A stretch of DNA of 64,000 bases from an uncultured Myxococcales bacterium. Its GTDB lineage: Bacteria; Myxococcota_A; Bradymonadia; UBA7976; VGTA01. Below, one piece after another: positions 4,560-42,181 of the stretch (position 1 is its first letter; each line of letters starts with the position of its first letter). The position numbers and the translations under genes are program-made. The stretch spans positions 5,154-69,153 of the forward strand of contig CAKZRU010000041.1 of NCBI GenBank assembly GCA_937146725.1, given 5' to 3'. The notes beneath the pieces were generated by a model. It was not told the origin of the DNA and did no database searches. It saw nothing but the letters and a program-made list of their open reading frames with translations.

Positions 4560-4782
4560 GCGATCACTTGTATGCTTGAGTTAAACATAAAAGTTAAGCT
4601 CAAGATGTATGTGAAGCTATTTCGCATGCGATTACCTCTCAAGTTTTCTTAAAGCTTTTTTATCATAAGACCATAAACTTATATAGCTTTTGTACTCACG
4701 ATCGAAAAAATCTTAAGAGTATGTTAACTTGAGATCAATGTTCATGTGTCATTTGATTATTTTGGCCAAAAGGATATCGTTT

Positions 4783-5634
4783 ATGCCCAAGGGTAGCCCA
4801 ATCTCTTTGATAGAACTCACTTTGAGCGAACTTGCTCAGCACCACAATGCCTTACCCAATATGCTAGATGAGTCTTGCACTGCGGTCATTGTTCGTGAGG
4901 CCTTTCCCAAAAGCCTTATGCAAAAGGCTTGTGAGCGCTTAAGTGCCAAAGAACTAGAATCTCAACTTACCTCACCCAATCAAGGAATGCCTGGTGGAGA
5001 ACTTCTTACATTAGGCGCGGCGGCCACGCCCACCATGACTGCTTTAAACGGGCCTAAAAACGAGATTTACATCGAAAGTGCTCAACATGCACAAGAATGG
5101 GAAAATCTTATATTTGGAGAGTTTAGCGTATCTGCACAAGTGGCCAAAATATTGGCTGGACTCAACCAAAATAAACCCGCTCAACCAGCCCCTTTTCAAG
5201 ATCCTCACTTAGGCCAATGGCTTCCCTTTAATTATCGAATATTACCCCCTAATACACAGATCTACTCTCACCATGATATGCATTATCGCTTGCCTATTTA
5301 TGACCTATTGGCGGATGGATATAACCAAAAAAAGCTTTTAAGTTGGTTTATCACCGGACAAGAAGCACTGTCAGGTGGCGAACTCATTATTTATGGCTTA
5401 CGCAGTGATGATCCTCATCCGCCTATGTTAGCTAATCGCTTTGTTGATACTGAAGCCTTAGAAAAAGAGTATTACAAGCTCAACTTAGATCTTAAAGCAG
5501 GTGATTTCTTGATTTTTAATTCAGGTTTACATGTGCACAGAGTCAGTGCTGTACAGCAAAAGCAATCACGGATCACCTTTGGGGGCTTTGCAACCTTTGC
5601 TCTTGACCAAAGTCATATGATTTATTGGAGCTAA
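4783..5634 (+). CDS. hypothetical protein, probable 2OG-Fe(II) oxygenase superfamily (prolyl-hydroxylase-like HxD...H...R arrangement)
   Basis: Start moved from 4729 to ATG 4783 preceded by AAGGA (4769-4773, 9-nt spacer); motifs SHHDMHY (HxD), GLHVHRV (distal His), SRITFGG (Arg) in the expected spacing for 2OG oxygenases. Confidence 0.5.
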   Translation: MPKGSPISLIELTLSELAQHHNALPNMLDESCTAVIVREAFPKSLMQKACERLSAKELESQLTSPNQGMPGGELLTLGAAATPTMTALNGPKNEIYIESAQHAQEWENLIFGEFSVSAQVAKILAGLNQNKPAQPAPFQDPHLGQWLPFNYRILPPNTQIYSHHDMHYRLPIYDLLADGYNQKKLLSWFITGQEALSGGELIIYGLRSDDPHPPMLANRFVDTEALEKEYYKLNLDLKAGDFLIFNSGLHVHRVSAVQQKQSRITFGGFATFALDQSHMIYWS

Positions 5635-5794
5635 AGATGACACAATCAATCACTTGTAAATAAGCAATAAACTTGATGCTTATCATGACATTTTGCTTTA
5701 ATTGATCTTGCTTGGCTCTCTAGTTTTGCTTTAGATGCCTCAACGACCAAACTTTATCTTATTTATGACTTTCGATACGGACGAACCTTACCTT

Positions 5795-8071
5795 ATGAAG
5801 CTTTATCAACTCCTTGTCTTATCCTGCTCGCTTTTTTATTTGAGTTCAGCTCATGCCCAAGCTACTTCGGAAGGTAAGGTAAGCGCTCCAAAGACAACTC
5901 AAACCCCAAAACAAAAGGCTAGCAAGACGCAAGAAGCCAGTAAGACGCAAGACGCCAGCAAGAAGCAAGAAGCTAGCAAGACACAAGGTTCTGAGCCTAA
6001 AGAAAAAAAGGCAGAGAACTCTGTTGCTAAAAAAGATCAACAAGAAACAAGTTCGCTAGTACAAAGCCCACAAGTACAAGCAGACCTAGCAACACCCAAA
6101 GCTAAAGTAAGCATTGGTCAAGAACGTCGCTTACCCAATGACCGAGTGGCGGTTCAACAAAGAGCGATGAGTCGAGAGGGCTCTATTGGTTTACATGAGG
6201 TGAAATCGGCTGATGTTGGTCCACAAGGCACTCTGCGCTTTGGTGTGCAAGTCAGTGGCTTTAGTTCGGATCAGTTTTTAACTTTAGGCACCAAAGAGCG
6301 CTTCTCAAGAGGTGACTTTTCTTTATCATATACGCCAATCAACTTTGTTGAAGTCTACGCGAATACCCGCTCATTAAGCTATACAAATCCCTTAGGGGCA
6401 CCAAGTTATGTTCAAGGTCAAGGTGATCTTAAATTAGGTGCTAAGGTGGGACACTTTTGGGGTACGATTGGAGCCGGTTTATCTTTAGCCGCTCAGCTTT
6501 TTAGTGATCCGGAAGGAGGCGCTTGGCGAGGCGAGGCGACTAACTTTGAAATCAGCGCTTTGTTTACAACTGATTTAACCAAAAAGGCAGCGCCGATTCC
6601 CTTTAGGTTTTTGCTTGATGTAAGCTTTACCAAAGAAAACAGTGAAGCCTTGACAGATTTTTTGGCCCAAGAACCAAGCCTAATCCAAGAATGGGGCTAT
6701 CAATCAGGTCGCTACGATCGTTTAATGCTCAATTTTGGTATTGAAGTGCCTACCGAATATGTGAGCCCTTTTATCGAGTATCACATTGGTACACCTTTCT
6801 TGGTGGAAATGCCTCGCATGGGTGAGTATTCCCGTATCTTTGCCTTTGAGTCAGTTCCCAACTACATGGCCGGTGGTCTGAGAGGCTTTCCAAGACCGGA
6901 CATTGCAATTGAGCTCGGGGGGACTTTAGGCTTTAGCGATGCACCCTTTACCGGTGTGCCGGCAACCCCACCTTGGAGCATTTGGGGCGGTGTGAGCTAT
7001 ACTTTAGATCCAAGACCTGAAGTAATTGAACGAGAGATTAAAATCGAGCCTCCTCCGGCACCCAAGGTTGAACCTAAACCTTTGGGTGCTTTGTTAACTC
7101 TTATGGTCGTGGATGCCGTTGATCAAAAGGCGATCGAGGGCGCAACATTAAGGTTTAACAATGAAGAACTCAGCCCACAATACAGTGATGAGCAAGGGCG
7201 TTTTATTGGCTATCGCCTAGCACCTAAAAAGTATATCATTGAGGTGTCGGCTGAGGGCTATTTAAGCAAAAAAGTCCGCTTGGGTATCAAAAAAGGGCAA
7301 GAGGAGCGCAAGGCTAGGCTCAAACTCAAGCGAGATCCGCAACAAAAGCTCGCTCGCTTTGCCGTCAGCTTAAAACTTAAGCCGGAAGAAGACGCAAACT
7401 TGGCCCGCTTTGAGTTGAGTTTTATTGGCCCAGAAGCACATAAAACCACTTTGAGCGCCTCTACTCCATTTAGCAAAGAGCTATTACCAGGCGACTATGT
7501 TCTACTGATTAACGATGCTGAGGGACGTAGCTATCATGAGTTAATTACTTTGGGTAGTGGGGGTGAAGGGACTCGCGAGATTACGCTTGATATGATTAAA
7601 GGGGTTCAAGAAGCCGATGATAACAATGCGCAAACCAAGACTTCCAAAAAAGCCAAAAAGTCATCTAACGAAGCACTTAAGGGCTCGACTAAGTGGCTTA
7701 AATATAACTTAAAACGTAAATATTTAGCCACCAAGCGAGGCATTAGTTTTAATGGTGAAGGCGCAAGTCTGACTAAGTCCGGTAAGCGTATTGTTCGTGG
7801 TTTGGCCGAATTCCTAAACAGTGAAACCAGAATCCAAAAGATCGTTTTAATGATCCATACTCATAGTCGTGGCGATCTTAAAGCTGACAAGCGCTTGGGC
7901 TATCAACGCGGGCAAGCGATTAAGAAACTACTAGTCGCCGAGGGCGTAAATGCAAGCCGAGTGTCTGTATTTAGCTATGGAAGTGAAAAGAGCATTGACT
8001 CAAACCTAACCAGACGTGGCCGACAGCGTAATCAAAGAGTCATGATGCGCATTAAATCAGTAGATTTATAA
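5795..8071 (+). CDS. OmpA-family outer membrane protein with N-terminal ASKTQ repeats, CarboxypepD_reg-like domain and C-terminal OmpA/MotB peptidoglycan-binding domain
   Basis: Signal peptide MKLYQLLVLSCSLFYLSSAHAQA (start moved to ATG 5795); 18-nt tandem repeats encoding ASKTQE x4; C-terminal TKRGISFNGEGASLTKSGKRIVRGLAEFL...RLGYQRGQAIKKLLVAEGV...RRGRQRNQRV typical OmpA-like domain. Confidence 0.75.
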   Translation: MKLYQLLVLSCSLFYLSSAHAQATSEGKVSAPKTTQTPKQKASKTQEASKTQDASKKQEASKTQGSEPKEKKAENSVAKKDQQETSSLVQSPQVQADLATPKAKVSIGQERRLPNDRVAVQQRAMSREGSIGLHEVKSADVGPQGTLRFGVQVSGFSSDQFLTLGTKERFSRGDFSLSYTPINFVEVYANTRSLSYTNPLGAPSYVQGQGDLKLGAKVGHFWGTIGAGLSLAAQLFSDPEGGAWRGEATNFEISALFTTDLTKKAAPIPFRFLLDVSFTKENSEALTDFLAQEPSLIQEWGYQSGRYDRLMLNFGIEVPTEYVSPFIEYHIGTPFLVEMPRMGEYSRIFAFESVPNYMAGGLRGFPRPDIAIELGGTLGFSDAPFTGVPATPPWSIWGGVSYTLDPRPEVIEREIKIEPPPAPKVEPKPLGALLTLMVVDAVDQKAIEGATLRFNNEELSPQYSDEQGRFIGYRLAPKKYIIEVSAEGYLSKKVRLGIKKGQEERKARLKLKRDPQQKLARFAVSLKLKPEEDANLARFELSFIGPEAHKTTLSASTPFSKELLPGDYVLLINDAEGRSYHELITLGSGGEGTREITLDMIKGVQEADDNNAQTKTSKKAKKSSNEALKGSTKWLKYNLKRKYLATKRGISFNGEGASLTKSGKRIVRGLAEFLNSETRIQKIVLMIHTHSRGDLKADKRLGYQRGQAIKKLLVAEGVNASRVSVFSYGSEKSIDSNLTRRGRQRNQRVMMRIKSVDL
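5918..5989 (+). repeat. 18-nt in-frame tandem repeat x4 (encodes ASKTQEASKTQDASKKQEASKTQG) inside the OmpA-family gene
   Basis: gctagcaagacgcaagaa / gccagtaagacgcaagac / gccagcaagaagcaagaa / gctagcaagacacaaggt read directly. Confidence 0.8.
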
Positions 8072-8138: not shown

Positions 8139-11100
8139 ATGATCAACTATCTAATCAATACGCAAAAGCTTTTGAGTCGTATGCACCTGTTTTTTATGGG
8201 CAGTATGATCATACTCAGTGCCTTAGGCTGTGGTCGAAGTGAGCTTCAATGCGATACCCACTTGGACTGTGCCAATGGTGAGGCCTGTATTCAATCTCAA
8301 TGTCTGACCGGCCCAGCCTGTGTAGAAGGGCTTTGCCCAAGCACCCAAGAATGCGTCGCTGAAATTTGCATAGATCGAGAATTACTCAAAAGCGAATGTG
8401 ATGAGCTTAATGCTTGTCCTGAAGGCTTAAGTTGCATCGAAGGCCGTTGTTTGCTGACCTGCGAAGGCGAGCAATGTGTGACGCCACCTCCAGAATGCAC
8501 TGAGGATGTTGAATGTGGTGATGGGCGAATTTGCCAAGACTTTAGCTGTGTTGAAGGTTGCAATTTTAACATACAATGCCCAGAAAATTATGACTGTGTG
8601 GATAATACTTGTGTCGCCTTGGCCTGTGTTGATGTTGACTGTCCTCAGGGCTTTGAATGTGTAGAGGATATGTGTGTTCCCAATGAAATCTGCGAGGAAA
8701 ACAGTGATTGTCCGGAAGGCTTAGTATGCGATTTAGGCCTCTGCCTTGATGTACCTTGTCAACAGGATGATGACTGTCTACAAGGCCAGCAATGTGTAAA
8801 TAATCAATGTATTGCCGCCCCTCAGTGCTTAAACTCAGCTGAATGTCCACGAGGCTTTGACTGCGTTTTAGGTGTATGTCGCTTTAATCCGGAATGTAAC
8901 TCGGATGATGATTGTGATGAGGGTGAAATCTGTTCAGCTAATGCCTGCATTCCATTTTTGGCTTGTATGGATAACAGTGACTGCCCACCCAACTTTGATT
9001 GCGCCGAAGGGCGCTGTGAGTTTAGTGGGCGTTGCAGTGATGACTTAGATTGTCCACCCATTGCCCTTTGCTTAGAAGAAGTCTGTGTCGAGAATGCTTG
9101 TCGAACGAGTCAAGAATGCGGAGTTGGCTCTGAATGTCTTGATAACCGCTGTGTGGAAGCTCCTGAATGTAGGGTCAATGGAGACTGTCCTTTTGGGACT
9201 CGCTGTGAGGATAGTCGCTGTGTAGAAGCTCCTGCTTGCCAAGTAAACACCGATTGTTTAGCTGGTGAATCATGTATCAATAATGTGTGTACGCCAAGTG
9301 GTTGTGAAAGCGCGGGGATTACCTGTCCACCCAATACCAACTGCATAAATGATGTATGTGCACCAAGTTCATGTCGAATCGATCAAGATTGCCCTCGTTC
9401 ATTCTCTTGTATCGATCAAGTTTGCTTGCCTACCTTATGTGAGCAAGATGCTGATTGTGGCTTAGGGTCAATCTGTCGGGCAGGGCGTTGTTTCTTCCCA
9501 GCGAGATGTATGAGTGATAATGAATGTGCTGGTGGTGAGCGGTGCTTGGCGGGTGTATGTACTCCGCAAGGCTGTAGTGTTGACCGAGACTGCCTAGATA
9601 ATGAGCAATGTGAAGCAGGTCGCTGTGTGGCACTAAGCTGTGTAAATGACATCGACTGTGGCCCCGAAGTTTACTGTATTGCCAACCAATGCATTCCGGA
9701 TTTAGTTTGCCAAAGTGCCGATGATTGTCCTGGTGGCATTCCCTGTGTGAATCGTCGCTGTCGCCTTGGTGATAATTGTGAGCGTGACAGTGACTGTCCC
9801 GTTGGCTTGGAATGTGCCTTTGGTGAATGCTTGGAAGTGCCGGTTTTAGAGTGCGCGCAGGACAGAGATTGTGCTCAAGGTCAGCGCTGCGAGTTTGGAC
9901 AGTGCACCGGAGAGGTGAATCTTTGCCAAAGTGACTTTGATTGTGGACCGGGCTTCACTTGTTCGGGTGGAGTATGTGTAAGCAATGATTGTATGAATGA
10001 TAGTCAATGCCCTGCCAATGAGATTTGTCAAGCGGGTCTTTGTGTACCAGCACCGGAATGTCGAGTCAGTACAGATTGTGGGCCAAACGAAGAATGTCGT
10101 AGTGGAAGCTGTGTCTTTACGGGTGAATGTCGTAATAACTTAGAATGCCAAGACCCCTTTATTTGTGTTGATTTTGCCTGTGTGCTCGATGGCGCTTGTG
10201 GACCTGATAACCCTTGCCCAAGTGGAGAGACCTGTATTAATCGCACCTGTATTCCAAATAATGGCTGTATACAAGATAGTGATTGTGGCTTGGGTGAAAG
10301 CTGTCGAGCGGGTCGCTGTCTCTTTACAGGAGAATGTCGTCTACCAAGAGATTGTCCGGTTAACTTTACCTGTCGCAACTTTGTTTGTGAGGCACTAAAC
10401 CAGTGTGTTGCTGACGTGGATTGTGGACCAGGTTCAAGCTGTGTGAATGGCCAGTGTGTATTTACGGGAGAATGTCAAAATGACATGGAATGTACTGGCT
10501 CTGATCGCTGTGTTGACTTCCTTTGTGTGCCGGCTTTACAGTGTGGACCAGGCCGCTTGTGTCCAGTAGGCGAAGAATGTATGGACGGCCTTTGTGTATT
10601 TAATGGCGAATGCCGAAATAATAACGACTGTCCTGCACTCAACTCATGTATCAATAACCAATGCGAAGAAACCGGACGCTGTGATCGAGATAGTGATTGT
10701 GCGGCAGGGCTTGTTTGTGATGCGCTGAGTCAACGCTGTGTTGCAGATATTGACTGCGCAAATGATGCCCAATGTGAAGCAGGGCAACAGTGTATTGGTG
10801 GGCTGTGTCGTGATGTGCTTGGATGTACACGAGATGCCGATTGTGAGTCGGATCAATACTGTGAGTTAGCTGCAAACTTATGCTTGGCTCGTCCGGATTG
10901 CTTTACCGATCAAGAATGTGCGGCAAATGAGCGTTGTGATCAAGGAAGCTGCGTGCCTACTTCTTGTAGTAGTGATGATGATTGTAATGCCGAGCAAAGC
11001 TGTGCAGCCGGTCGCTGTATTCCACGTCTTTTCTGTGGTGATGACTCCGATTGCTTTATTCCAGGCACACAGTGCATCAACAACGTTTGCGAAGTGCCCA

Positions 11101-12998
11101 ATGGCTGTACTAATGATGCTGAATGTGGACCATTTCAAGCGTGTTTAGCAGGTGCGTGTATTCCTGCTCCACCAAGTATCTGTCAACGAGATGAGGACTG
11201 TCCGGGTAGCTTGGTCTGCGAATTTGGACTTTGTATTCCCAATCAAGGCTGCGGTGGTGATAATGATTGCCCAAGCGGTCAAGTTTGTGAAGCTGAAACC
11301 TGCATTCCGGCACCAAGTGCTTGTCGCATTGATGCAGAATGTGCCAATGGTCAAGTCTGTGATCTTGACTTAGGGGGTGTATGCGTTGATGCACCAGCAT
11401 GTCGAGTCAATGAAGATTGTAATTTAGGAGAAATCTGTCGGGGCGCCTTGTGTGTGGCCGGCTGCGTAATTAGCGATCGCTGTCCACAGGGTACACGCTG
11501 TATAAATAATTTCTGCCAAGAAGGCTTAGGCTGTAATAGTAATGATGAATGTATGTCGGGTTCGGTCTGTGATTTAAGCACTGGCGAATGTGTAGTGGGA
11601 GAGTGTAGCCAAGACAGTGATTGTGCCAATGGGGCAGTATGCTCAAACTTTAGCTGTGTTGACCCAAGTGCCTGCACAACAAGCCAAGATTGTCCGGTAG
11701 GCCAGCTTTGCTTAAGCGGAAGTTGTGTTGAAAGTGATCGCTGTGACCCAAATGTAGAAATCATAGATATTGTTTTGGGCGGGATTGGTGATGAAATTGG
11801 ACTCAGTGTAGATACCAGTGGTCGTGAAAATCAATATCAGGCCAGCTGTGGGGGTGGTGCTCAATCGGGAGATCAGCCAATTGCCGTACGCGTCAATGCC
11901 ATTGGCTTATTTACGGCAACAGTACTCAGCGCTCAAGGTTATGATACTGTACTCTTTATGCGTTCTCGCTGTGAAGTGGAAGACAGCCAAATTGTCTGTA
12001 ATGATGATAGTAATGGCCTGCTGAGTGAGATCAGTACACCTATTCTGACACCGGGCATCTATTATGTATTTCTTGATGGCTTTGGATCAGCACGAGGCGT
12101 GGCCGAATTACAATTTAGCCTGACTTCACTGACAGAATGTACACAGGATAGCGATTGTGAAGGTGCTCCATGTGTTGATGGAGTATGTGGGGCTCCCGAA
12201 TGCGTTGGCGATATTGACTGTGCGCCCAACGGAATTTGTAATGCGGGTATTTGCGTAGATGGCACTCGCTGTCAAGTAGACAGTCAGTGTGCGGCCGATG
12301 AAATCTGTGAAAATCGAAGCTGTGTACCGGCTGAATGTCTACAAGATACCGATTGTGGTGTACGCCAAATCTGTAATGAAAATCGCTGTGAGCGACCAGA
12401 ATGTCGCCAAGATGCAGACTGCCCGAGTGGAAACATTTGTGATGTAGGTCGCTGCATTGAGAGCTGTCGAGTCGATGCCGACTGTGATGATATCTTTGCG
12501 ATTTGCGAGGCCAACAGCTGTGTTCCGGCAGAATGTTTAAGAGATGATCAATGTGCTCAGGATGAAAGCTGTGATGCCGGACGTTGTATCAGTGGTAATG
12601 GCGGTGGTGGAACCGGTCAAATTGGTGATCCATGCGTGAATGATAGTTTGTGTAGCAGTGATTTAATTTGTGAAAATGCTCAATGTGAGTCTGCCGAAGG
12701 CCTATGTGCAGAAGTAACCGACTGTGGTGGAACCGGCGCCTGTCTAGGTGGTAACTGTGTACCAGCACCTAGCTGCCAAACCGCCGATGATTGCAGTGGA
12801 TTAATTCCTATTCCTATTCCCCTACTTTGTATTAACAGCCAATGCCGATCGGCTTTTGTCCAATGTAGCTTAAACCAAGATTGCGGTGATGGACAAAGTT
12901 GTGCCTTTGGTGTTTGTCTGCCGATTCCAGCGAATGAATGCTTAAGAGATACAGACTGCGGTAATGGTCGCTTATGTGAGAATGGCTCATGTCAGTAG
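8139..12998 (+). CDS. giant (1619 aa) secreted cysteine-rich repeat lipoprotein: ~60-65 tandem 4-Cys modules (C-x3-4-[DN]-x-[DE]-C-x2-G-x2-C-x4-5-C) with one embedded PPC-like beta-sandwich domain (~aa 1205-1330)
   Basis: Lipobox MIILSALGCGRSE; module period ~22-25 aa repeated throughout (e.g. CRIDQDCPRSFSCIDQVC, CEQDADCGLGSICRAGRC, CSVDRDCLDNEQCEAGRC); insert IVLGGIGDEIGLSVD...DTVLFMRSRC...GIYYVFLDGFG...LQFSL matches PPC-domain pattern. Confidence 0.8.
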   Translation: MINYLINTQKLLSRMHLFFMGSMIILSALGCGRSELQCDTHLDCANGEACIQSQCLTGPACVEGLCPSTQECVAEICIDRELLKSECDELNACPEGLSCIEGRCLLTCEGEQCVTPPPECTEDVECGDGRICQDFSCVEGCNFNIQCPENYDCVDNTCVALACVDVDCPQGFECVEDMCVPNEICEENSDCPEGLVCDLGLCLDVPCQQDDDCLQGQQCVNNQCIAAPQCLNSAECPRGFDCVLGVCRFNPECNSDDDCDEGEICSANACIPFLACMDNSDCPPNFDCAEGRCEFSGRCSDDLDCPPIALCLEEVCVENACRTSQECGVGSECLDNRCVEAPECRVNGDCPFGTRCEDSRCVEAPACQVNTDCLAGESCINNVCTPSGCESAGITCPPNTNCINDVCAPSSCRIDQDCPRSFSCIDQVCLPTLCEQDADCGLGSICRAGRCFFPARCMSDNECAGGERCLAGVCTPQGCSVDRDCLDNEQCEAGRCVALSCVNDIDCGPEVYCIANQCIPDLVCQSADDCPGGIPCVNRRCRLGDNCERDSDCPVGLECAFGECLEVPVLECAQDRDCAQGQRCEFGQCTGEVNLCQSDFDCGPGFTCSGGVCVSNDCMNDSQCPANEICQAGLCVPAPECRVSTDCGPNEECRSGSCVFTGECRNNLECQDPFICVDFACVLDGACGPDNPCPSGETCINRTCIPNNGCIQDSDCGLGESCRAGRCLFTGECRLPRDCPVNFTCRNFVCEALNQCVADVDCGPGSSCVNGQCVFTGECQNDMECTGSDRCVDFLCVPALQCGPGRLCPVGEECMDGLCVFNGECRNNNDCPALNSCINNQCEETGRCDRDSDCAAGLVCDALSQRCVADIDCANDAQCEAGQQCIGGLCRDVLGCTRDADCESDQYCELAANLCLARPDCFTDQECAANERCDQGSCVPTSCSSDDDCNAEQSCAAGRCIPRLFCGDDSDCFIPGTQCINNVCEVPNGCTNDAECGPFQACLAGACIPAPPSICQRDEDCPGSLVCEFGLCIPNQGCGGDNDCPSGQVCEAETCIPAPSACRIDAECANGQVCDLDLGGVCVDAPACRVNEDCNLGEICRGALCVAGCVISDRCPQGTRCINNFCQEGLGCNSNDECMSGSVCDLSTGECVVGECSQDSDCANGAVCSNFSCVDPSACTTSQDCPVGQLCLSGSCVESDRCDPNVEIIDIVLGGIGDEIGLSVDTSGRENQYQASCGGGAQSGDQPIAVRVNAIGLFTATVLSAQGYDTVLFMRSRCEVEDSQIVCNDDSNGLLSEISTPILTPGIYYVFLDGFGSARGVAELQFSLTSLTECTQDSDCEGAPCVDGVCGAPECVGDIDCAPNGICNAGICVDGTRCQVDSQCAADEICENRSCVPAECLQDTDCGVRQICNENRCERPECRQDADCPSGNICDVGRCIESCRVDADCDDIFAICEANSCVPAECLRDDQCAQDESCDAGRCISGNGGGGTGQIGDPCVNDSLCSSDLICENAQCESAEGLCAEVTDCGGTGACLGGNCVPAPSCQTADDCSGLIPIPIPLLCINSQCRSAFVQCSLNQDCGDGQSCAFGVCLPIPANECLRDTDCGNGRLCENGSCQ

Positions 12999-15124
12999 TC
13001 GCCAAAAAACTATCTGCTTTAATTGAAAATGCAGGGTTTTCTTATGAGTTCTTAAATATAGCATCTACGAGTGATCCTTTGGTTCAGGAGGTCACACTCG
13101 ACTTAGATGAGGTGAGCTTAGGCGTACTGTTTATTGCAAGAAAGCTTTGGTATGTAGACACTCATCAGCAGATTGATGAGGCTATACAAAAGGGGGCAGT
13201 GGCGGTTTTAGTCAGCGACTCAAGTCAAGTGAGTGAAAAGACCTTACACAATACGCAGGTGCCCATTGTGCTTTTAGAGCATGAAGATCCAAGCTTGGGG
13301 CTCATTTGCGCGCGCTTTTATGAGCATCCCTGTGCACAGCTTAAAGTGTATGGGGTGACCGGTACCAACGGAAAAACTTCAGCGGTCACCTATTTGGCAG
13401 ACTTACTCACCGCATTAGGGGAACGAGTAGCAGTAATTGGTACGGTGGAATACCGCTTTGAACATCGGCGCTTAGCCGCAGCAAACACCACACCGGATGC
13501 CTTGGTGATTCAGCGCTTTGCAAGACATGCACTCGACCTAGGAGCGACTGCTTTAACCCTAGAGGTCAGCTCTCATGCGCTTAGCCTTGATCGGGTGGCT
13601 GGGGTTTATTTTGATGCTGTGGGCTTTACTTCTTTTGGGCGAGATCACTTAGATTTTCATGGTAGCTTAGAGGGCTATCGCAATGCCAAGGGGCGTCTTT
13701 TTGATGATTACTTAATGAACTCGCTTCAACATGGTAAAACACCTATTGCTGTGGCACATGATGATGTTGAAGGCCAAGCGATGTTAGGCCGCACACCAGG
13801 TGGCGTCGAAAGAGTCTATTGTCATGTGCAAACAAAAGTAACGTCTGAAACAAAAGTAACATCTGAAACAAAGTCCTTAAGCTTAGTCTCTGATCACTCT
13901 CATAGTCTTAAGCTTAATATTCAAGATGAAGTCAGCTTAGCAGGTATTACGCTTGAAGGTACTTATGCAACTCAGCAAGACAACACTGAGCTACCGGCCA
14001 TCAAGGTTGGACTCATTGGAGACTACCATCCGGCAAATGCTGCGATTGCTTTGGGTATGCTACTTAAAACTCACCAAGAACGTTTTTTGGATGCTTGGTT
14101 CAGTTTGCAAAAGACGCGGGGCGTACCAGGGCGAATGGAAAGAGTCATACTACCCGATGCATTATCTTATGAAACTCGGGTCGCTTTGGTAGACTACGCG
14201 CATACGCCTGATGCGATTACTCGTGCGATTCAAGCCATTAAAGCGGTGCATCAAGGGGCACTCTCAGTTATCATCGGCTGTGGGGGTGATCGTGACCGGG
14301 GTAAACGACCTCAAATGCTGAAAGCTGCCTTACAAGAAGCAGATCAGGTTTGGCTAACGAGTGATAATCCTCGGAATGAGTCACCACAGCAAATTATCGA
14401 TGATGCTTTGAGCTTGGCTGAGCTTGAACCCGCACTTTATGCTGAGTTCAAGGCTAAACTCGTGGGCAAAATTGTCGATCGACGTGAATGTATCGCACAA
14501 GCATGGCAAGGGCTTACCAAAGAGGGCGCGCTACTGATTACCGGCAAAGGACATGAATCCTATCAAGAAGTTCAAGGGCGTCGTTATCGTTTACAAGATC
14601 ACGAAGCACTGAGAGCAGGAGCTTGGGCGGAACATAAGCAACTTGATTTACAGCATGTACCTTATCTACAGAGTTGTCTCTTTAATGATACTACTCTAGA
14701 TGAGAATAATCATTTGGCTCGACTTTTACTTTTACTCCGAGAGGCCTGCTTTAGACCGAATGGATTGGTGTTACGCTGTTTAAAACAGACAGACGGTGAA
14801 GAGCCTAGTTTATCCACAGATCACTTCATCATTCATTGCCATAAAGCCGAAAGCTCTACTTTTGAGTCTTATACAAACTTTAGTGATTTCTTGTGGACTC
14901 AATTAGCTGGATTTAGTCCACAACATAAAGAGATTCATGTTTTAGTGTCTAGATTTGTGGGGTTTGGACAAGTGTCTGGATTTATTGATGAAATCTTAGG
15001 TATGGCTAATGAGTTTGCCTACCCTCATGCAGAACTAACGATCAAAACTGATTTAAGTGATTGCAAGCCGACCGGTGGATGGTCAAAGCAAAGTACCGGA
15101 CCTAAAATTCCGTCTTTAGTTTAG
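12989..15124 (+). CDS. murE: Mur ligase family protein, MurE-like (UDP-MurNAc-L-Ala-D-Glu:meso-DAP ligase) with an internal insertion and a ~230-aa C-terminal extension of unknown function
   Basis: P-loop GVTGTNGKTS; DYAHTPDA; TSDNPRNE (DNPR motif, meso-DAP-type MurE); N-terminal domain GVLFIARKL...DEAIQKGAVAVL; ATG 12989 overlaps stop of upstream gene (12996-12998) by 10 nt; extension after ...EALRAGAWAEHKQLD has no Mur ligase motifs. Confidence 0.7.
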   Translation: MSVVAKKLSALIENAGFSYEFLNIASTSDPLVQEVTLDLDEVSLGVLFIARKLWYVDTHQQIDEAIQKGAVAVLVSDSSQVSEKTLHNTQVPIVLLEHEDPSLGLICARFYEHPCAQLKVYGVTGTNGKTSAVTYLADLLTALGERVAVIGTVEYRFEHRRLAAANTTPDALVIQRFARHALDLGATALTLEVSSHALSLDRVAGVYFDAVGFTSFGRDHLDFHGSLEGYRNAKGRLFDDYLMNSLQHGKTPIAVAHDDVEGQAMLGRTPGGVERVYCHVQTKVTSETKVTSETKSLSLVSDHSHSLKLNIQDEVSLAGITLEGTYATQQDNTELPAIKVGLIGDYHPANAAIALGMLLKTHQERFLDAWFSLQKTRGVPGRMERVILPDALSYETRVALVDYAHTPDAITRAIQAIKAVHQGALSVIIGCGGDRDRGKRPQMLKAALQEADQVWLTSDNPRNESPQQIIDDALSLAELEPALYAEFKAKLVGKIVDRRECIAQAWQGLTKEGALLITGKGHESYQEVQGRRYRLQDHEALRAGAWAEHKQLDLQHVPYLQSCLFNDTTLDENNHLARLLLLLREACFRPNGLVLRCLKQTDGEEPSLSTDHFIIHCHKAESSTFESYTNFSDFLWTQLAGFSPQHKEIHVLVSRFVGFGQVSGFIDEILGMANEFAYPHAELTIKTDLSDCKPTGGWSKQSTGPKIPSLV

Positions 15125-15159: not shown

Positions 15160-16518
15160 CTAGCCGATTTGCACGAGACGCGGCGCTCTTTTGAGCTTAG
15201 CTCGCCGTTCTTCATCGGTCCAAATTGATCCATCTTTCCAATGTAAAGCTAAGACTTTTTCCAAAGGAATACCCAAGATCTCTGGGGGAGCATTGGGCTC
15301 TTCATCGGGAATTGGAAATAGTCTTGTTTCAAAAACACCATGATCAAAGGGAATACCGGGCGGTGGGCTGACTCTGACTAACTGCTCATGAAGTCCACGC
15401 TGTTCATATTCCAAGGCTCGGTGGATACAGTATGGATTATTTCCCGCTTTACCCATGGTACAATGCGAAGTCCACGTACAGCCACCCATGCAAACATCAG
15501 CATAATAACATTCTTTACAGTAGCCCCAAAGGTCATCTCGGTTACGTAAACGGGTATGGCTCACCTCTTTAGCATTATGCAAAACATCAATGATGGCTTC
15601 GCTATGCGTGTAGCCACCGGTAAAGTAGTCAGAGGGCAAAGAAGGGCATCCTTTGATTTTACCGTCGGCTTCTACACCAATGCAGTTTTTTCCTGCTTTA
15701 CAGCCACTCCAATGTGTGCCCGACTCTCCGCCATAGCGTAAGATTTCTTCAAACGGACCAAAATAGCCAATGTTATTCCCCGGAAATAAGCGGGCACCGG
15801 CCGGTTTAAGTTTTTGGGTTTTAATCCAAGAGAGCAAAGGGAAAACATCAAGCAAGTCATACGGCTGTAAAAGCATGTCTGGACGGTCAGCGCCACGACC
15901 CATAGGTACAGTGATTTGGATTTGCCAACCGATTGCTCCCAAATCAATCAGTAATTGAGAAAGAGCAGGAAGCTCCGGAAGAGAAAGGCGATTAATTTGC
16001 GTATTCATGCTTACGCCCATTGAACTTTTGGCCACTCGCTCTGCACCATCAACCGCAGCTCGCCATGAGCCTAATACTGCCCGTTGAGCATCATGAGTGT
16101 GCTCAAGGCCATCGATAGAGAAGGAAATATGCCTAAGGCCAGCATCTTCGGCTCGCTTGACTCGCTCGGCATTCATCCCTCGACCGCCGGTGGTCATAGT
16201 GCATGCCATGCCACTTTTAGTGATCGCGGCCGCAATAATATCCCAATCTTCACGCAGATAGGCCTCGCCCCCAATTAAGGTGACCTCGGTAAAACCACTA
16301 TCTTTGAGTTGCTTCACCACATCAAGACATTGCTCAGTGCTCAGTTCATCATTACGAGCCTTGCCGGCTCGAGAGCCACAGTGCTTACAGCCTAAATCAC
16401 AGGCTAAGGTGATTTCCCAAACGCAGTATCTTGGCACCACTTGATCAGGAGCTGATTTTTCAGCAAATCGGGCAAATTGATTGGGTTTTTCTGTAGATGA
16501 CTTAATACTTGAACTCAC
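15160..16518 (-). CDS. radical SAM / SPASM-domain enzyme (PqqE/anSME-like peptide- or protein-modifying maturase) with ~80-aa C-terminal tail
   Basis: CDLGCKHC (Cx3Cx2C radical SAM cluster motif) near N-terminus after VWEITLA; GGEAYLR SAM-binding region; SPASM auxiliary cluster motifs SGCKAGKNCIGVEADGKIKGCP ... GYCKECYYADVCMGGCTWTSHC. Confidence 0.85.
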   Translation of the reverse strand: MSSSIKSSTEKPNQFARFAEKSAPDQVVPRYCVWEITLACDLGCKHCGSRAGKARNDELSTEQCLDVVKQLKDSGFTEVTLIGGEAYLREDWDIIAAAITKSGMACTMTTGGRGMNAERVKRAEDAGLRHISFSIDGLEHTHDAQRAVLGSWRAAVDGAERVAKSSMGVSMNTQINRLSLPELPALSQLLIDLGAIGWQIQITVPMGRGADRPDMLLQPYDLLDVFPLLSWIKTQKLKPAGARLFPGNNIGYFGPFEEILRYGGESGTHWSGCKAGKNCIGVEADGKIKGCPSLPSDYFTGGYTHSEAIIDVLHNAKEVSHTRLRNRDDLWGYCKECYYADVCMGGCTWTSHCTMGKAGNNPYCIHRALEYEQRGLHEQLVRVSPPPGIPFDHGVFETRLFPIPDEEPNAPPEILGIPLEKVLALHWKDGSIWTDEERRAKLKRAPRLVQIG

Positions 16519-16589: not shown

Positions 16590-17138
16590 TTATGGCTTGG
16601 CTTTATTGACCTTATCCATTTCTTCTGTGCCAGCCATTTCACCGGTCGAAGGTACGCCAGAATCTTCTTGTGGAATATCTTCTCTAGCGGGTTCCATCAT
16701 GATCGGACCGCCCACGAACTTGCTGACAGGAGAAGCACCATAAACTTCTTGTGGAATCTCTTCTCTAGCGGGTTCTATCTTTATTTCATCTTCAGTGGCC
16801 ATAATGCCAACCGGTGGGCCTCCGTATAGAGATTCTACCATCCCGGTGGGTGTATCAATCACTTTGGTACCAGGGGTATTTTCAATTACTTCGTCCTCAT
16901 CATCACACGCCCCAAAACTTAGGCTTGCACTTAATAAGCCAAGAGCAAGTTTTGACGTTTTTGAAAACTTAGAAGCTGTTTGAGATACAGCAGTATTACT
17001 GATGAGTTGTCCACCACAGAAAGTACATTCAAGTGCAAAGAGTTCAGCACTGCTCAAGCTAGAGTCAACTTGATGATGTCTAGCGCAAGTATTACAACGA
17101 GTTAAGCTATCTTTGGAAACAGCAATGATTTTTTTCAT
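16590..17138 (-). CDS. zinc-ribbon (CxxC-x19-CxxCG, FmdB-like) single-pass membrane protein with periplasmic acidic C-terminal tail containing duplicated EPAREEIPQE motif
   Basis: CNTCARHH...ECTFCGGQL; N-in signal-anchor SKFSKTSKLALGLLSASLSFGAC; IEPAREEIPQEVYG / MEPAREDIPQEDSG duplication; lies between M15 peptidase and rSAM genes on the same strand. Confidence 0.6.
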   Translation of the reverse strand: MKKIIAVSKDSLTRCNTCARHHQVDSSLSSAELFALECTFCGGQLISNTAVSQTASKFSKTSKLALGLLSASLSFGACDDEDEVIENTPGTKVIDTPTGMVESLYGGPPVGIMATEDEIKIEPAREEIPQEVYGASPVSKFVGGPIMMEPAREDIPQEDSGVPSTGEMAGTEEMDKVNKAKP

Positions 17139-17188: not shown

Positions 17189-18151
17189 CTATTGTTTGTC
17201 AATGATGAGCTCCGGCCTATACTCAAAGTGCATGGTATCATGGTGATACCACCACCCCCCCCAAATAAAGCCATAGCGTTTAAAGGTTTCGACAATTTCT
17301 ACAGGAAAGCTGTTTTTGTAAGGAATTAAGCCTTGGGCATTTCGGCCATAGACTTTCATTGTCCATTTCCAATAGTTGGAATATTTAACTCCGATATCAA
17401 TCGCCGCTCCAAAACTGTGTACACTTAGACGTTGAGTCCCCTTTATTTTACGCCAAGTAAAAGCACCGGCACTAGGTTCATAATAACGCTTAAACTTTTT
17501 AGGCAGACAGTTCTTAAGGTCGGTATAAATAGCTTGTAAGCGTTGATCGATCTTGTGTAAACGAGTGACCTTAAGTTTTTGCTTGCCCCAATAAACTGTG
17601 GTGAGCTGCTGAGCCACTTCAGCTTTGGATCGACCATATAGTTTTTTGAAAAAGACCTCATCTCTGAGACGACCGGGTTCAAAGTTTACAGGTAAATCTT
17701 TGGGTAGTTGGGAAGTGTGTGGATAAAGCTGTAAAAACTGCTCCGCTAGGCGTGCATGATTGAGTGCATGATCAAAATCCTTAAAGCCCTGTTGCTTCCA
17801 AATCTGAGCCTGTTCCACTTTAGAAAGCTTGGACCAAGTGAAAAGGTCATACTTTTGTTTCGGTCGCTCCCAAGCATGTTTGGTATTGTTTTTAAACACT
17901 AAAGAGCCTTGGGTTTCGGTATGCTTTGAGGCGCTTTTAATCGAATCTGAATAAGCAATCAGTAAAGCTTGAATCTCTGATGGAAGCTGTTGTTCTTCTT
18001 GGTTGAGTATACGAGAAGTTGGGTTGGCGGTAATGACAAGCTCAGGTTGAGAGGGAGGACAGTCAAGATCTTGAGCAAGGCAAGTCATACTTACAGTCAT
18101 ACTCATAACTAAATACATGCAACAGAAATGTTGTCCGTGATGTTTGCACAT
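17189..18151 (-). CDS. secreted M15-family zinc metallopeptidase (VanY / D-Ala-D-Ala carboxypeptidase-like, peptidoglycan peptidase)
   Basis: N-terminal signal; SVHSFGAAIDI (SxHxxGxAxD zinc ligand motif) and GGWWYHHDTMHFEY (second His/Asp motif) typical of M15/VanY peptidases. Confidence 0.7.
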   Translation of the reverse strand: MCKHHGQHFCCMYLVMSMTVSMTCLAQDLDCPPSQPELVITANPTSRILNQEEQQLPSEIQALLIAYSDSIKSASKHTETQGSLVFKNNTKHAWERPKQKYDLFTWSKLSKVEQAQIWKQQGFKDFDHALNHARLAEQFLQLYPHTSQLPKDLPVNFEPGRLRDEVFFKKLYGRSKAEVAQQLTTVYWGKQKLKVTRLHKIDQRLQAIYTDLKNCLPKKFKRYYEPSAGAFTWRKIKGTQRLSVHSFGAAIDIGVKYSNYWKWTMKVYGRNAQGLIPYKNSFPVEIVETFKRYGFIWGGWWYHHDTMHFEYRPELIIDKQ

Positions 18152-19941: not shown

Positions 19942-20072
19942 AGATGTCTCCTATGGTCAGGTTTACTAAAAAGTCTTATGATTACAGTAGTTATTGAGCT
20001 TTTTACCTAGGTTATTCAAAGAGGATTTATGAGTGATTTTAAATTAATTTACTCATAGGTGATGAATCTAGC

Positions 20073-20101
20073 TTGACAAGGGGCAGGCAAATTCATATTT
20101 T
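20073..20101 (+). promoter_or_regulatory. sigma70-like promoter upstream of rpsU (TTGACA-17-TATTTT), followed by a 14-nt perfect palindrome ctctcagctgagag (20117-20130)
   Basis: TTGACA at 20073-20078, 17-nt spacer, TATTTT at 20096-20101; about 155 nt upstream of rpsU start. Confidence 0.45.
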
Positions 20102-20257
20102 CACACGTCTTTACAAGCTCTCAGCTGAGAGTTTGGTGAGCAGATTTGCTCATTATTAAATTATTAATCAACCTAAATCCGCAGAGAGGCTAAACTCTAG
20201 TTGATTTGACTAAGTTTATACTTCACTGCGACCCAGTAACGAGAAAGGTCGTATACC

Positions 20258-20497
20258 TTGAGCCAAAATGAGTTAAACCTCCGACCATTGGAGGTCGTTG
20301 TAGATGGAGATAATGTAGAGCGTGCTATCAAGGCCCTCAAGCGTAAAGTTGCCCACGAAGGAATCTACAAAGAGCTCAAGCGCCGCCGTTTTTATGAGAA
20401 GCCTTCTGTAAAGCGTAAGCGTAAGCAACGTGAAGCAGAGCGTCGTCGTCGTAAAGAGCGTCGCCGTGCTTTACGTGCAAACGTTCGTCGTCGCTAA
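20258..20497 (+). CDS. rpsU: 30S ribosomal protein S21
   Basis: TTG start with AAAGG upstream; ...NVERAIKALKRKVAHEGIYKELKRRRFYEKPSVKRKRKQREAERRRRKERRR matches S21 core (FDVALRRFKR..REFYEKP..RKR..) and Arg-rich tail. Confidence 0.85.
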   Translation: MSQNELNLRPLEVVVDGDNVERAIKALKRKVAHEGIYKELKRRRFYEKPSVKRKRKQREAERRRRKERRRALRANVRRR

Positions 20498-20507
20498 TTA
20501 GCACTTT

Positions 20508-20571
20508 AGCTAAATAAATATGGAGCTAAATAAATATGGAGCTCAATAAATATAGAGCTCAATATTTATAC
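20508..20571 (+). repeat. 16-nt tandem repeat x4 (agctaaataaatatgg / agctcaataaatatag variants) immediately downstream of rpsU stop
   Basis: Units at 20508-20523, 20524-20539, 20540-20555, 20556-20571 read directly from sequence. Confidence 0.85.
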
Positions 20572-20585
20572 GACCCTTTGCTCGG

Positions 20586-20858
20586 TTGAGAGATGGTCAG
20601 CGAAAAGTCTCAAACAAGAGCCTAATAAAAGCTGAAAAGCCCAAGATAAGTCAGGTAGACATAACCATGAGTGCTTATAATGCTGTAAAAGTGTTTACTG
20701 CGACCCGAGCTAAAGAGCGGGAGTCTTTGGGCGAAGTAATGAGTGCTTGGCTTAAGCAAATGGCTGACAAGATCCAAGTGGTAGATACCAAGGTCCTTCA
20801 ATCAAGTGACCAACAGTTCCACTGCTTAACCATTATCGTTTTCTATAGAGAACTTTAA
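20586..20858 (+). CDS. small hypothetical protein
   Basis: 90-aa ORF (possibly starting at internal MSAYNAVKVF...); no recognisable motif. Confidence 0.3.
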   Translation: MRDGQRKVSNKSLIKAEKPKISQVDITMSAYNAVKVFTATRAKERESLGEVMSAWLKQMADKIQVVDTKVLQSSDQQFHCLTIIVFYREL

Positions 20859-20917
20859 TCAAGAACTTTAATAGAGACTGATAAAACACTTAATCAGCAG
20901 TGAGTTATTGGACTAAG

Positions 20918-21628
20918 TTATTGGGCCGGTTCCGCATAGAGGTAAAAACGATCTATGCAGTTTACTGGGCCACCACAAGCGGTAAGCGCACCTTGATACT
21001 CATCACTCGACAGGCTATTTGGCTGTCCGTTTAAAGGTAACTCGATACTGAGTTTGTGTCTAACCGATAGCTCACCTTGGAATATACTTGATTCATTTGT
21101 TGGTAAATAAATTGCTTGCGCATTGCTTTCCTGTGCAGTGCAACACTCGGCTAGGGCCTCCTGCCACTCAAGATCACTTGGGCGCAAAGAAGATTCGCCC
21201 ATAGGAAAGGCAGTATCGGGTATTGAGCGAGTCAGCGTACAAGCAAGTTGGCCATCTAATTCATCTCTTATTCCGGGAGCTCTCATAATACTTTGCAGGA
21301 TCAGACTTTCTCTCGAAGCTAGGCATAAAGATTTATTTGGGGGCTGAGATTCCTCGCATTTTAGCCCCTCAAGTCGCCAAGTAAACAGGGGGGCTTTGAT
21401 TAAAGCGACAACAGCTTGATCCTGCTTTCCTAAGTTCATTGTGCCATAAATAGGCTCAGAAGATAACTGAGTCCCTACTTGAGCACAGGTGCTAGTACTG
21501 AGCTTGAGTTCTAACTGATACTCAAAGGGCAAATCCTCAATGGGAATTAAGCTTGATGGATCTTCACAAGCCAATACACCTAGGAACATACCTGCTATGG
21601 TCATTAAGTGTACTAAATTACGATTCAC
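20918..21628 (-). CDS. hypothetical lipoprotein
   Basis: Lipobox MTIAGMFLGVLAC; no recognisable catalytic motif. Confidence 0.5.
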   Translation of the reverse strand: MNRNLVHLMTIAGMFLGVLACEDPSSLIPIEDLPFEYQLELKLSTSTCAQVGTQLSSEPIYGTMNLGKQDQAVVALIKAPLFTWRLEGLKCEESQPPNKSLCLASRESLILQSIMRAPGIRDELDGQLACTLTRSIPDTAFPMGESSLRPSDLEWQEALAECCTAQESNAQAIYLPTNESSIFQGELSVRHKLSIELPLNGQPNSLSSDEYQGALTACGGPVNCIDRFYLYAEPAQ

Positions 21629-41434: not shown

Positions 41435-42181
41435 GTGAAAGATAAAAACATGACTAACATTAAACATCTCGCAATAATTATGGATGGCAATGGTCGTTGG
41501 GCTGAACAGCAAGGATTACCAAGAGCGGTTGGTCATGAAAAAGGTGCAGAAGTTGTGAGAGCTGTCACTCGAGCAGCCAAAGCGAGAAGCATAAAGCATC
41601 TCACACTTTTTGCCTTTAGCAGCTTAAATTGGGGACGTCCCACCCAAGAAGTTAATGCCCTCATGGATCTACTTTGTCATTTTCTTGAATCCCAAGAGCA
41701 GTCAATGATTGAGGAAGGGATTTGTTTAAGGGGGATTGGCGAGCGTTCATTTTTACCACAAAGAGTTAAATCTTTGTTGGAGCGTGTTGAAGAAAATACC
41801 AATCAAAATAATGAGTTATTCCTTAATCTAGCGATTTCGTATGATGGGCGTAGAGACTTGGTTAAAGCGACTCAACAGTTGGTTGCTCTTGCCTGCCAAG
41901 GGCTTTTATTGCCGGCTGATGTGCAAGAAGAATTAATTATGCAAAAATTGGCGACAGGGAATACGCCCGATGTTGATCTTTTAATCCGCACTTCCGGTGA
42001 ACAACGTTTATCAGGATTTTTGCCGATCGAAGCCTGTTATGCAGAACTTGTTTTTATCGATAAATTGTGGCCTGACTTTACCAGCCAAGACTTAGATCGA
42101 GCACTCGATGAGTTTGAGAGTAGGCAACGTCGCTTTGGGCTAACAGGACATCAACTTGAGTTGAGTATGAGTCCTGCTTAA
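41435..42181 (+). CDS. uppS: isoprenyl transferase (undecaprenyl diphosphate synthase)
   Basis: HLAIIMDGNGRWA signature, FAFSSLNWGRP, RTSGEQRLSGFLP motifs. Confidence 0.9.
   Translation: MKDKNMTNIKHLAIIMDGNGRWAEQQGLPRAVGHEKGAEVVRAVTRAAKARSIKHLTLFAFSSLNWGRPTQEVNALMDLLCHFLESQEQSMIEEGICLRGIGERSFLPQRVKSLLERVEENTNQNNELFLNLAISYDGRRDLVKATQQLVALACQGLLLPADVQEELIMQKLATGNTPDVDLLIRTSGEQRLSGFLPIEACYAELVFIDKLWPDFTSQDLDRALDEFESRQRRFGLTGHQLELSMSPA

Follow-up and report, generated by a model that had tools for sequence, protein, structure and literature searches.

A MurE ligase with a putative MurF remnant and a conserved end peptide, encoded behind a giant lipoprotein gene in an uncultured Myxococcales bacterium

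Introduction

The window analysed here is a stretch of 64,000 nucleotides of contig CAKZRU010000041.1 (assembly GCA_937146725.1), from an uncultured Myxococcales bacterium. It raises the question of what a MurE-type peptidoglycan ligase is doing as the last gene in a block for envelope proteins, away from the division and cell wall (dcw) genes and with a long C-terminal extension beyond the normal MurE. An earlier sequence-only reading of the window had suggested an accessory function related to the peptidoglycan stem peptide, or a second specialised MurE paralog. We think, with moderate confidence, that the protein is a competent MurE followed by ~165 amino acids (aa) that remain, in degenerate form, of the MurF half of a MurE-MurF chimera in its ancestry. 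The 711-aa open reading frame (ORF) was verified, and its parts are the following:

12989..15124, + strand: whole ORF of 711 aa, a MurE with a putative vestigial MurF stub and a conserved tail peptide
12989..14623, + strand: catalytic MurE body, aa 1-545, with N-domain, ATP-binding central domain and C-domain (TIGR01085, Foldseek, phmmer, motifs)
14624..15058, + strand: putative vestigial MurF-derived domain, aa 546-690 (~145 aa), a small alpha/beta fold without P-loop or Mur catalytic motifs
15074..15118, + strand: conserved C-terminal peptide GGWSKQSTGPKIPSL, aa 696-710 (family alignment)

The MurE body

The subfamily model TIGR01085 (NCBIfam murE) matches aa 32-542 on its positions 4-468 of 472 with 375.6 bits, the cut-off being 257.3, and phmmer aligns the protein to E. 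coli MurE 7b6o (E=9e-61) with the motifs of the latter in register, namely GTNGKT, the lysine equivalent to K224, DYAHTPDA, GCGGDRDKGKRP, DDNPR and GKGHE. Pfam recognises Mur_ligase_M at aa 123-356 and Mur_ligase_C at aa 381-521; PF01225 gives no match to the N-domain, which is too divergent for that model. TIGR01085 covers this domain, and so does the phmmer alignment with E. coli MurE, which begins at residue 31. The full-length AlphaFold2 model has a mean predicted local distance difference test (pLDDT) of 86.5 and a predicted template modelling score (pTM) of 0.83. When compared by Foldseek with the MurEs of M. tuberculosis, E. coli and T. maritima, it gives target-normalised TM-scores (TMt) of 0.77-0.89 over ~550 columns. 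Thus, the three-domain architecture of Mur ligases is found by the two Pfam domains, the superposition of the model and the N-domain alignment together. The motifs and the one variable region of the body are located as follows:

13352-13381, + strand: P-loop GTNGKT, aa 124-130, aligned to E. coli GTNGKT
13676-13702, + strand: K234 in YRNAKGRLF, aligned to E. coli AAKWLLY
14192-14209, + strand: DYAHTP, C-domain motif
14363-14374, + strand: DNPR (D459-N460-P461-R462), aligned to E. coli DDNPR
14543-14557, + strand: GKGHE, C-domain motif
13799..13999, + strand: hypervariable surface loop, aa 271-337 (tandem repeat, low pLDDT, low identity)

K234 is equivalent to K224 of E. coli MurE, which we take to be the carbamylated lysine (1E8C), and DNPR is the marker motif of MurEs that add meso-diaminopimelate (meso-DAP). 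In an alignment of 20 sequences, comprising 18 family members and two canonical relatives, the P-loop, EVSSH, DHLDFHG, K234, DYAHTP, GCGGDRDRGKRP, SDNPR and GKGHE are invariant, and the central domain has a mean identity of 78% across the family. The sequence-only reading had recognised the Mur-ligase domains and the DNPR motif, and Pfam, TIGR01085, the structure match and the location of DNPR at aa 459-462 bear it out. The scores for the curated MurE equivalogs NF001124 and NF001126 stay under their cut-offs (372.1 against 476 and 362.3 against 373, respectively), which points to a divergent member: judged by the subfamily model, the protein is a MurE that stands outside the curated equivalog groups.

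As the catalytic and meso-DAP residues are all intact, there is no sequence sign of a changed substrate, and nothing in the substrate-binding motifs points to an altered amino-acid specificity. We infer that the protein is a catalytically competent, meso-DAP-adding MurE (UDP-MurNAc-L-Ala-D-Glu:meso-DAP ligase), which would perform the ordinary MurE step.

The exception to this conservation is the loop of the central domain, which had been described as an internal insert with a KVTSET tandem duplication. The duplication stands: Tandem Repeats Finder (TRF) locates it at 13830-13872, with a period of 18 bp, 2.4 copies and 96% matches, encoding KVTSETKVTSET. A discrete insert, on the other hand, was not found, the region being a hypervariable and disordered loop. 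It spans residues 271-338 against 256-300 in E. coli MurE, ~23 residues more between the aligned blocks; no other part of the MurE body is conserved so poorly, the mean identity to relatives being 23% against the value given above for the central domain, and its residues 285-299 are predicted to be disordered (pLDDT <50, AlphaFold2). The 99%-identical strain protein P0001 (ENA ERZ23491180 scaffold_500) reads TK-SAEANVTSETK where the window has TKVTSETKVTSETK. From this difference between near-identical sequences, we take the 18-bp duplication to be a recent, strain-specific slippage in a tolerant surface loop and not a functional insertion.

The C-terminal extension and its relation to MurF

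The extension beyond the normal MurE amounts to ~165 aa (aa 546-711), and not to the ~230 aa first estimated; from aa 554, where the string LQHVPYLQ quoted for its beginning starts, only 158 residues remain. Among 5.8 billion proteins, a search gave relatives P0002-P0014, of 690-750 aa, with 50-65% identity at 95-100% query coverage, and more distant ones (P0015-P0021) that share the architecture, ~20 clusters in all, down to 45% identity, drawn from independent assemblies (ENA, NCBI, JGI and Logan). The fusion is thus kept in relatives, the same architecture being present in ~20 clusters at 45-65% identity, as the sequence-only reading had proposed to check.

Within the family, the extension is only 23% identical, yet it retains the fixed motifs (V/A)P...S, LLREAxLRxxGL, LxPxHR and the terminal GGW-x5-GPKIPSL, in whose tail G697, I707, P708 and L710 are nearly invariant. 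Searched alone against 1.84 billion representatives (phmmer), it matches family members only, so that by this measure it is neither a mobile nor a stand-alone domain. No other long ORF of the window ends in the tail peptide, and among metagenome contigs a single one, of 1.6 kb, matched a degenerate DNA pattern for GGW-x5-GPKIPSL. Two proteins of a low-GC branch beside the window family, P0023 (572 aa) and P0027 (629 aa), have ~35-45 residues past MurE and end in QRLP(R/H)L; that such short forms keep this end points to the end peptide as the selected part.

Modelled alone, the extension folds with confidence (pLDDT 86.7, pTM 0.82) into a small alpha/beta domain, whose predicted fold is of the P-loop-NTPase type. 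The central domains of Mur ligases belong to this fold class. The predicted fold is therefore compatible with a MurF relic, although it is not diagnostic of one, and a G..GK[ST] P-loop occurs in no extension of the family members.

The relation to MurF emerges from comparison with more distant proteins. The next relatives of the MurE body, at 37-45% identity, are extended MurEs of ~560-770 aa and MurE-MurF fusions of ~965-1080 aa; nearly all of the distant extended MurEs end in [RK]-[IVL]-P-[STR]-L, often followed by basic residues, or in RPIPVP. Profiles of sequences cut after the MurE domain were compared by hhalign, the P-values being those of single comparisons and the alignments shallow (~20 sequences). 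A set of long extensions (P0028, P0040, P0042, P0046, P0049, P0056, P0062, P0067 and P0074) matches the MurF half of the fusions with a probability of 98.1% (P=7.3e-14, 170 columns). This match runs from the MurF N-terminus (APLLxGWSxxRLAxxxGG) through the P-loop helix and strand (ALLxEARxxxGLWVIAITGSNGKTT) to EMGAN...PDV. The pooled extensions also match the MurF half (94.4%, P=8.5e-8, 93 columns), and the window family matches the other extensions with 22-88% depending on the alignment (P=1e-3 to 2.7e-6, 76-129 columns), with the order of the motifs kept: (V/A)P..S/GW, LLREAxLRxxGL, LxPxHR and the end peptide. Reversed-sequence controls gave 0.1-0.4% (P=0.15-0.75), and the extensions have no match to the MurE domain (0.6-1.8%, P=0.03-0.10).

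In a neighbour-joining (NJ) tree of the MurE domain, which is rough and without support values, the extension-bearing MurEs form one clade whose nearest branch is one fusion, P0036; the remaining fusions and the canonical dcw MurEs are in a sister group. The simplest reading is that of one ancestral chimera of MurE and MurF in which the MurF half decayed step by step, with the window family among the more reduced forms: if the long stubs derive from MurF, then the stub of the window protein should do so too. The sequence-only reading was right that the extension is without catalytic Mur motifs; its description as an unrelated extra domain is at odds with the profile comparison, which ties it to MurF.

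What is left is not a MurF in the sense of the curated families. The model for bifunctional MurE-MurF proteins, NF008896, gives 370 bits against a cut-off of 1023, its positions 29-498 of 965 being covered, which is the MurE half only. As to MurF itself (TIGR01143), the extension is without its own P-loop, central and C-terminal domains and has only a remote profile similarity to the place where the N-domain and central domain of MurF join. By these models, the window protein belongs neither to the bifunctional family nor to MurF.

Genomic setting

None of the 38 window ORFs of at least 150 aa is a dcw gene by a Pfam scan of the 64-kb window, in agreement with the previous observation that the gene is not embedded in an mraY/murF/ftsI cluster. 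The only other cell-wall-related gene of the window is uppS (undecaprenyl-diphosphate synthase, 41435-42181). Extended MurEs are outside dcw in all seven further related contexts examined (7/7); those of the more distant P0020, P0021 and P0029 have different neighbours, and no dcw genes either. The genes and the junction that precede the MurE are these:

5735..8071, + strand: OmpA-family protein with a CarboxypepD_reg-like domain and an OmpA C-terminal peptidoglycan-binding domain (Pfam OmpA aa 672-766, E=6.9e-13)
8139..12998, + strand: giant cysteine-rich lipoprotein, 1619 aa, 15.7% Cys, with DUF7107 repeats (Pfam DUF7107 E=1.5e-73, 6 stretches)
12989..12998, + strand: 10-nt overlap of the MurE ATG with the TAG of the lipoprotein gene (sequence ...ctcATGtcagTAGtcg)

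The giant protein has the lipobox LSALGC at its N-terminus. The block of OmpA-like protein, giant Cys-rich lipoprotein and extended MurE recurs at loci L002/L003 (P0011, 52% identity), L004/L005 (P0006, 56%) and L008/L009 (P0013, 50%), and the lipoprotein orthologues upstream of MurE in L002, L004 and L008 range from 1659 to 1679 aa and have 15.7-15.9% Cys. In the window, a gene for a WelO5-like 2-oxoglutarate/Fe(II) halogenase or oxygenase (4729-5634, + strand, PF22814 E=7e-37) lies upstream of the one for the OmpA-like protein, as it does in L002 and L004.

The 1619-aa ORF ends with the TAG at 12996-12998, and the ATG of the MurE at 12989 falls within its final codons. The overlap of 10 nt had been pointed out before, and its coordinates were checked; it is kept in relatives as 10 nt in L001, L004, L005 and L006 and as 4 nt in L002/L003, but L008/L009 have a 26-nt gap instead. 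No sigma-70-like or promoter-like site was found between 12500 and the start of the MurE at 12989 (490 nt), which fits co-transcription with the lipoprotein gene, although this is weak evidence. The MurE is probably co-transcribed with the giant lipoprotein gene, and the 10-nt overlap makes translational coupling of both likely, as far as can be judged from the sequence. In the distant, high-GC locus L010 (P0057, GCA_020633555.1), the MurE overlaps by 4 nt the stop of the gene for a secreted Cys-repeat lipoprotein. This protein (L010 8154-10004) has Cys repeats of the CxDGxDNDxDG type, and one of its domains shows a marginal similarity to the giant protein, at aa 1222-1342 of the latter (pairwise E=0.004). 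In view of this overlap and weak similarity, the pairing of lipoprotein gene and MurE may be older than the window family.

Downstream and convergent to the MurE is a gene for a radical S-adenosylmethionine (rSAM)/SPASM protein (15160-16518, - strand), which resembles maturases of nif11-class and GDL peptides (TIGR04103 465 bits, TIGR03913 436 bits, both below cut-off). Next come a 182-aa ORF with CxxC pairs (16590-17138, - strand) and an M15_4 peptidase (17189-18151, - strand), and the three together are possibly a peptide-modification cassette. The functional link between these convergent genes and the MurE that had been suggested found no support: they are absent downstream in L002/L003, L007 and L008/L009. 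In L004, another gene parts the rSAM gene from the MurE, and the locus ends before any position of an M15 gene. The window has a second giant surface-type protein, of 2356 aa with FG-GAP and Big_13 repeats (30158-37228, - strand). P0020, a distant family member, is a MurE of 851 aa whose extension is longer still; at ~3 kb from it, its context has a protein of 821 aa with the shoulder domain of the major vault protein (PF11978).

For comparison, dcw clusters were located in L012 (3777-21488), L014 (4422-21352) and L017 (138-14692), with the order mraZ-rsmH-ftsL-ftsI-murE-murF(or fusion)-mraY-ftsW-murG-(murB)-ddl-ftsQ-ftsA-ftsZ. These clusters lack murC, and murD is missing from between mraY and ftsW, so that other Mur ligase genes are also away from dcw in these Myxococcota-/Bradymonadia-like lineages. 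L012 and L014 carry canonical murE-murF pairs, whose closest named relatives are labelled Myxococcota or Bradymonadia; the taxonomic label rests on NCBI names of metagenome-assembled genomes (MAGs), such as 'Myxococcales bacterium'. L017 (GCA_046766215.1) has a fusion in its place: mraZ-rsmH-ftsL-ftsI-[MurE-MurF fusion]-mraY-ftsW-murG-ddl-ftsQ-ftsA-ftsZ. This fusion (4053-6998), the match P0121 of the MurF search described below, which was not assigned to a clade, is called as two genes of 218 and 759 aa that are 9 nt apart; probably the MAG has a frameshift or is misassembled here, or else the fusion is a pseudogene.

The MurF of the lineage was searched for with the MurF half of the fusion P0025 as query. 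Among the stand-alone MurFs, those nearest to the MurF of the fusion (P0122, P0123 and P0129) have longest contigs equal in length to those of the canonical MurE matches P0262, P0283 and P0258, which suggests that they are on the same contigs. The low-GC candidate P0192 (L016: murF-mraY-ftsW, with no murE within 195 nt upstream) was rejected as the MurF of the lineage, its tetranucleotides being betaproteobacterial-like (r=0.77, against ~0.42 to the window). A Mur-ligase-like match of 25% identity from Allofranklinella, obtained in a reference-genome scan with over-specific patterns, is unrelated. Two apparent products with a dead MurE and a live MurF were also discarded: P0121 is the frameshift-split normal fusion in dcw just mentioned, and P0186 starts inside the MurE central domain and looks like a truncation at a contig end.

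Weighing the alternatives

Several observations weigh against a working MurE with a MurF relic. Compared directly with the MurF half, the window family gives an insignificant result (1.7-1.9%, P ~0.03, 22 columns), the best match being at the homologous site, LLREACFRPNGLVLRCL versus ALLRFARRTRGGLWVRAITGS. Curated NCBIfam models run on the extensions recognise none of them, and Pfam on the full window protein finds just the two MurE domains. The ancestry proposed for the window family depends on profile transitivity and on the NJ tree without support values, and the docking role considered in the next section is pure conjecture. Moreover, the contigs with canonical dcw murE-murF pairs, which are Myxococcota-/Bradymonadia-like, have a GC content of 54-62% that overlaps the range of the family, and this is compatible with a canonical murE and an extended MurE co-occurring in one genome.

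This last point concerns the question of whether the window gene is the sole, working MurE of its lineage, and we lean towards thinking that it is. The MurE half is strongly constrained and the MurF half decayed, an asymmetry to be expected in a genome that has a further MurF but no second MurE. The competing possibility is a second, specialised MurE paralog that stands beside a canonical murE or a fusion in dcw and has an envelope task tied to the operon of OmpA-like protein and Cys-rich lipoprotein. Such a paralog could well be outside dcw in all contexts examined and in a conserved operon association with envelope proteins, could share its range of GC with the canonical dcw pairs, would be expected to stand phylogenetically apart from the canonical MurEs, as ancient paralogs do and as the extension clade does, and could score under the MurE equivalog cut-offs. 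However, both types are shown together in no genome, and a neofunctionalised paralog would not usually keep all its catalytic and DAP-specificity residues unchanged, as this protein does. That the MurF half alone decayed suggests that only MurF was redundant. Using amino-acid composition as a proxy for GC, no low-GC canonical MurE set that mirrors the ten low-GC family members was found among the closest relatives of the L014 dcw MurE, which is weak evidence in the same direction. Overall, we regard a specialised paralog as rather unlikely.

An extension not derived from MurF, that is, an unrelated lineage-specific domain for regulation or localisation that shares short motifs with MurF by chance, appears to us improbable. 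It would account for the insignificant direct comparison, for the absence of a curated-family match, and for the tail peptide being the best-conserved element without a counterpart in MurF. Chance similarity hardly explains the graded series that goes from intact fusions through long stubs (P=7e-14 against MurF) to the short stubs and the window family, with the motifs collinear through the series, the MurE-domain clade monophyletic and the reversed controls clean, nor the linker and the '(A/V)P..GW/S' start motif of MurF that are still there.

A catalytically dead MurE-like protein recruited to another role, as plant PAP11, is very improbable: plastid MurE-like PAP11 chains are among the structure and sequence matches, so MurE folds can be repurposed, but the ATP-, Mg- and DAP-binding motifs are all invariant in the family. 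An assembly or frameshift artefact that joined a normal murE by error to a downstream ORF can be dismissed, since the extension is carried as a continuous ORF with a conserved C-terminal end by the ~20 clusters from independent assemblies and there is no case to support such a join, the sole artefact-like one, in L017, going the other way, with a frameshift that splits a fusion.

A possible role for the stub and the tail

If the protein descends from a chimera, its MurF moiety would have lost the P-loop, most of the central domain and the entire C-terminal domain, retaining a small folded stub and the end peptide GGW-x5-GPKIPSL. The gene would have left dcw, to be now the last one in the block of OmpA-like protein, giant Cys-rich lipoprotein and MurE. 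The stub and the tail could persist as a non-catalytic module for docking or scaffolding, the partner of which would be MurF or another Mur or divisome protein, so that a non-covalent tether would replace the earlier covalent fusion. In the chimera of Bordetella pertussis, the MurE C-terminus is packed against a hydrophobic patch in the N-terminal region of MurF, and the chimera binds MurC, MurD and MurG (PMC10214165). By analogy with this packing and these interactions, a docking role would be reasonable.

The tail of the family, K-I-P-S-L-[LV], which in relatives is often followed by basic residues, resembles the C-terminal peptide of FtsZ from L014 (DVPTFLRNPKRR). The peptide of that FtsZ (20036-21352) is HIDVPTFLRNPKRRNDS (D-V-P-T-F-L-R-N-P-K-R-R), and MurE ends such as KIPSLV, HVPTLGR and KIPSLWDRRGR have in common with it an IP/VP-x-hydrophobic core and a basic tail. 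This resemblance may be chance between short motifs, and we treat it as a lead only. A more specific version of the docking role can be built on it, in which the pseudo-enzyme stub and the tail would tether the protein to MurF or the divisome, with the tail on the docking site of the FtsZ peptide (on FtsA or similar). Precursor synthesis would thereby be brought to the division site, and the operon would link the output of envelope proteins to the incorporation of DAP. We consider this version quite doubtful.

Significance and comparison with known systems

Mur ligase chimeras have been taken as evidence for a cytoplasmic Mur complex and substrate channelling (PMC10214165). Intact chimeras and their linkers, not decayed ones, were described by Shirakawa et al. 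(PNAS 2023, PMC10214165). In our full-text searches of the literature, chimeras were found described, but no decayed MurF stubs on MurE, no such end peptide and no clade out of dcw. The closest deposited protein, MAD61440.1 (P0003), is labelled 'hypothetical protein' by NCBI. Ordinary in catalysis, the protein is moderately interesting with regard to how Mur fusions evolve and to the question of the Mur complex. If our interpretation is true, a clade with a decayed MurF stub is a natural experiment on what matters in a fusion besides catalysis, and the stub with its tail would be a candidate interaction module. Moreover, with extended MurEs placed outside dcw and labelled 'hypothetical', a reconstruction of pathways in these uncultured marine Myxococcota-like bacteria could err by counting murE as absent or as duplicated.

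With canonical MurEs (E. coli 1E8C/7B53, M. tuberculosis 2WTZ), the window protein shares the three-domain fold (TMt 0.77-0.89) at ~30% identity, the P-loop, the position of the carbamyl-lysine, DNPR and GKGHE, as well as a TIGR01085 score above the cut-off. It differs from them in the ~165 extra C-terminal residues, in the longer disordered loop of the central domain, in an N-domain divergent from PF01225 and in scores under the equivalog cut-offs, and its gene is outside dcw, behind a giant lipoprotein gene.

The likeness to MurE-MurF chimeras (Bordetella pertussis 8F5D; NF008896) is that of a MurE part followed by putatively MurF-derived sequence in one polypeptide, with the fusion P0036 as the nearest branch (the others being in the sister group) and with a linker and a MurF N-terminal motif that can still be traced. 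Unlike the chimeras, the window protein has a stub of only ~145 aa for its MurF part, without P-loop or C-terminal domain, which rules out that it adds D-Ala-D-Ala; its conserved end peptide is new, and its gene is outside dcw, whereas the fusion examined is inside.

A third parallel is with the other extended MurEs (P0026-P0074, for example P0057 of GCA_020633555.1, from Myxococcota-like MAGs), which belong to the same MurE clade, have collinear extension motifs and an end motif, and are outside dcw in both contexts checked, the start of the MurE in L010 also overlapping an upstream lipoprotein gene by 4 nt. These proteins are 42-45% identical to the window protein, come from high-GC organisms and have extensions of ~95-250 aa, while the window family has its own version of the stub together with the GGW-x5-GPKIPSL tail.

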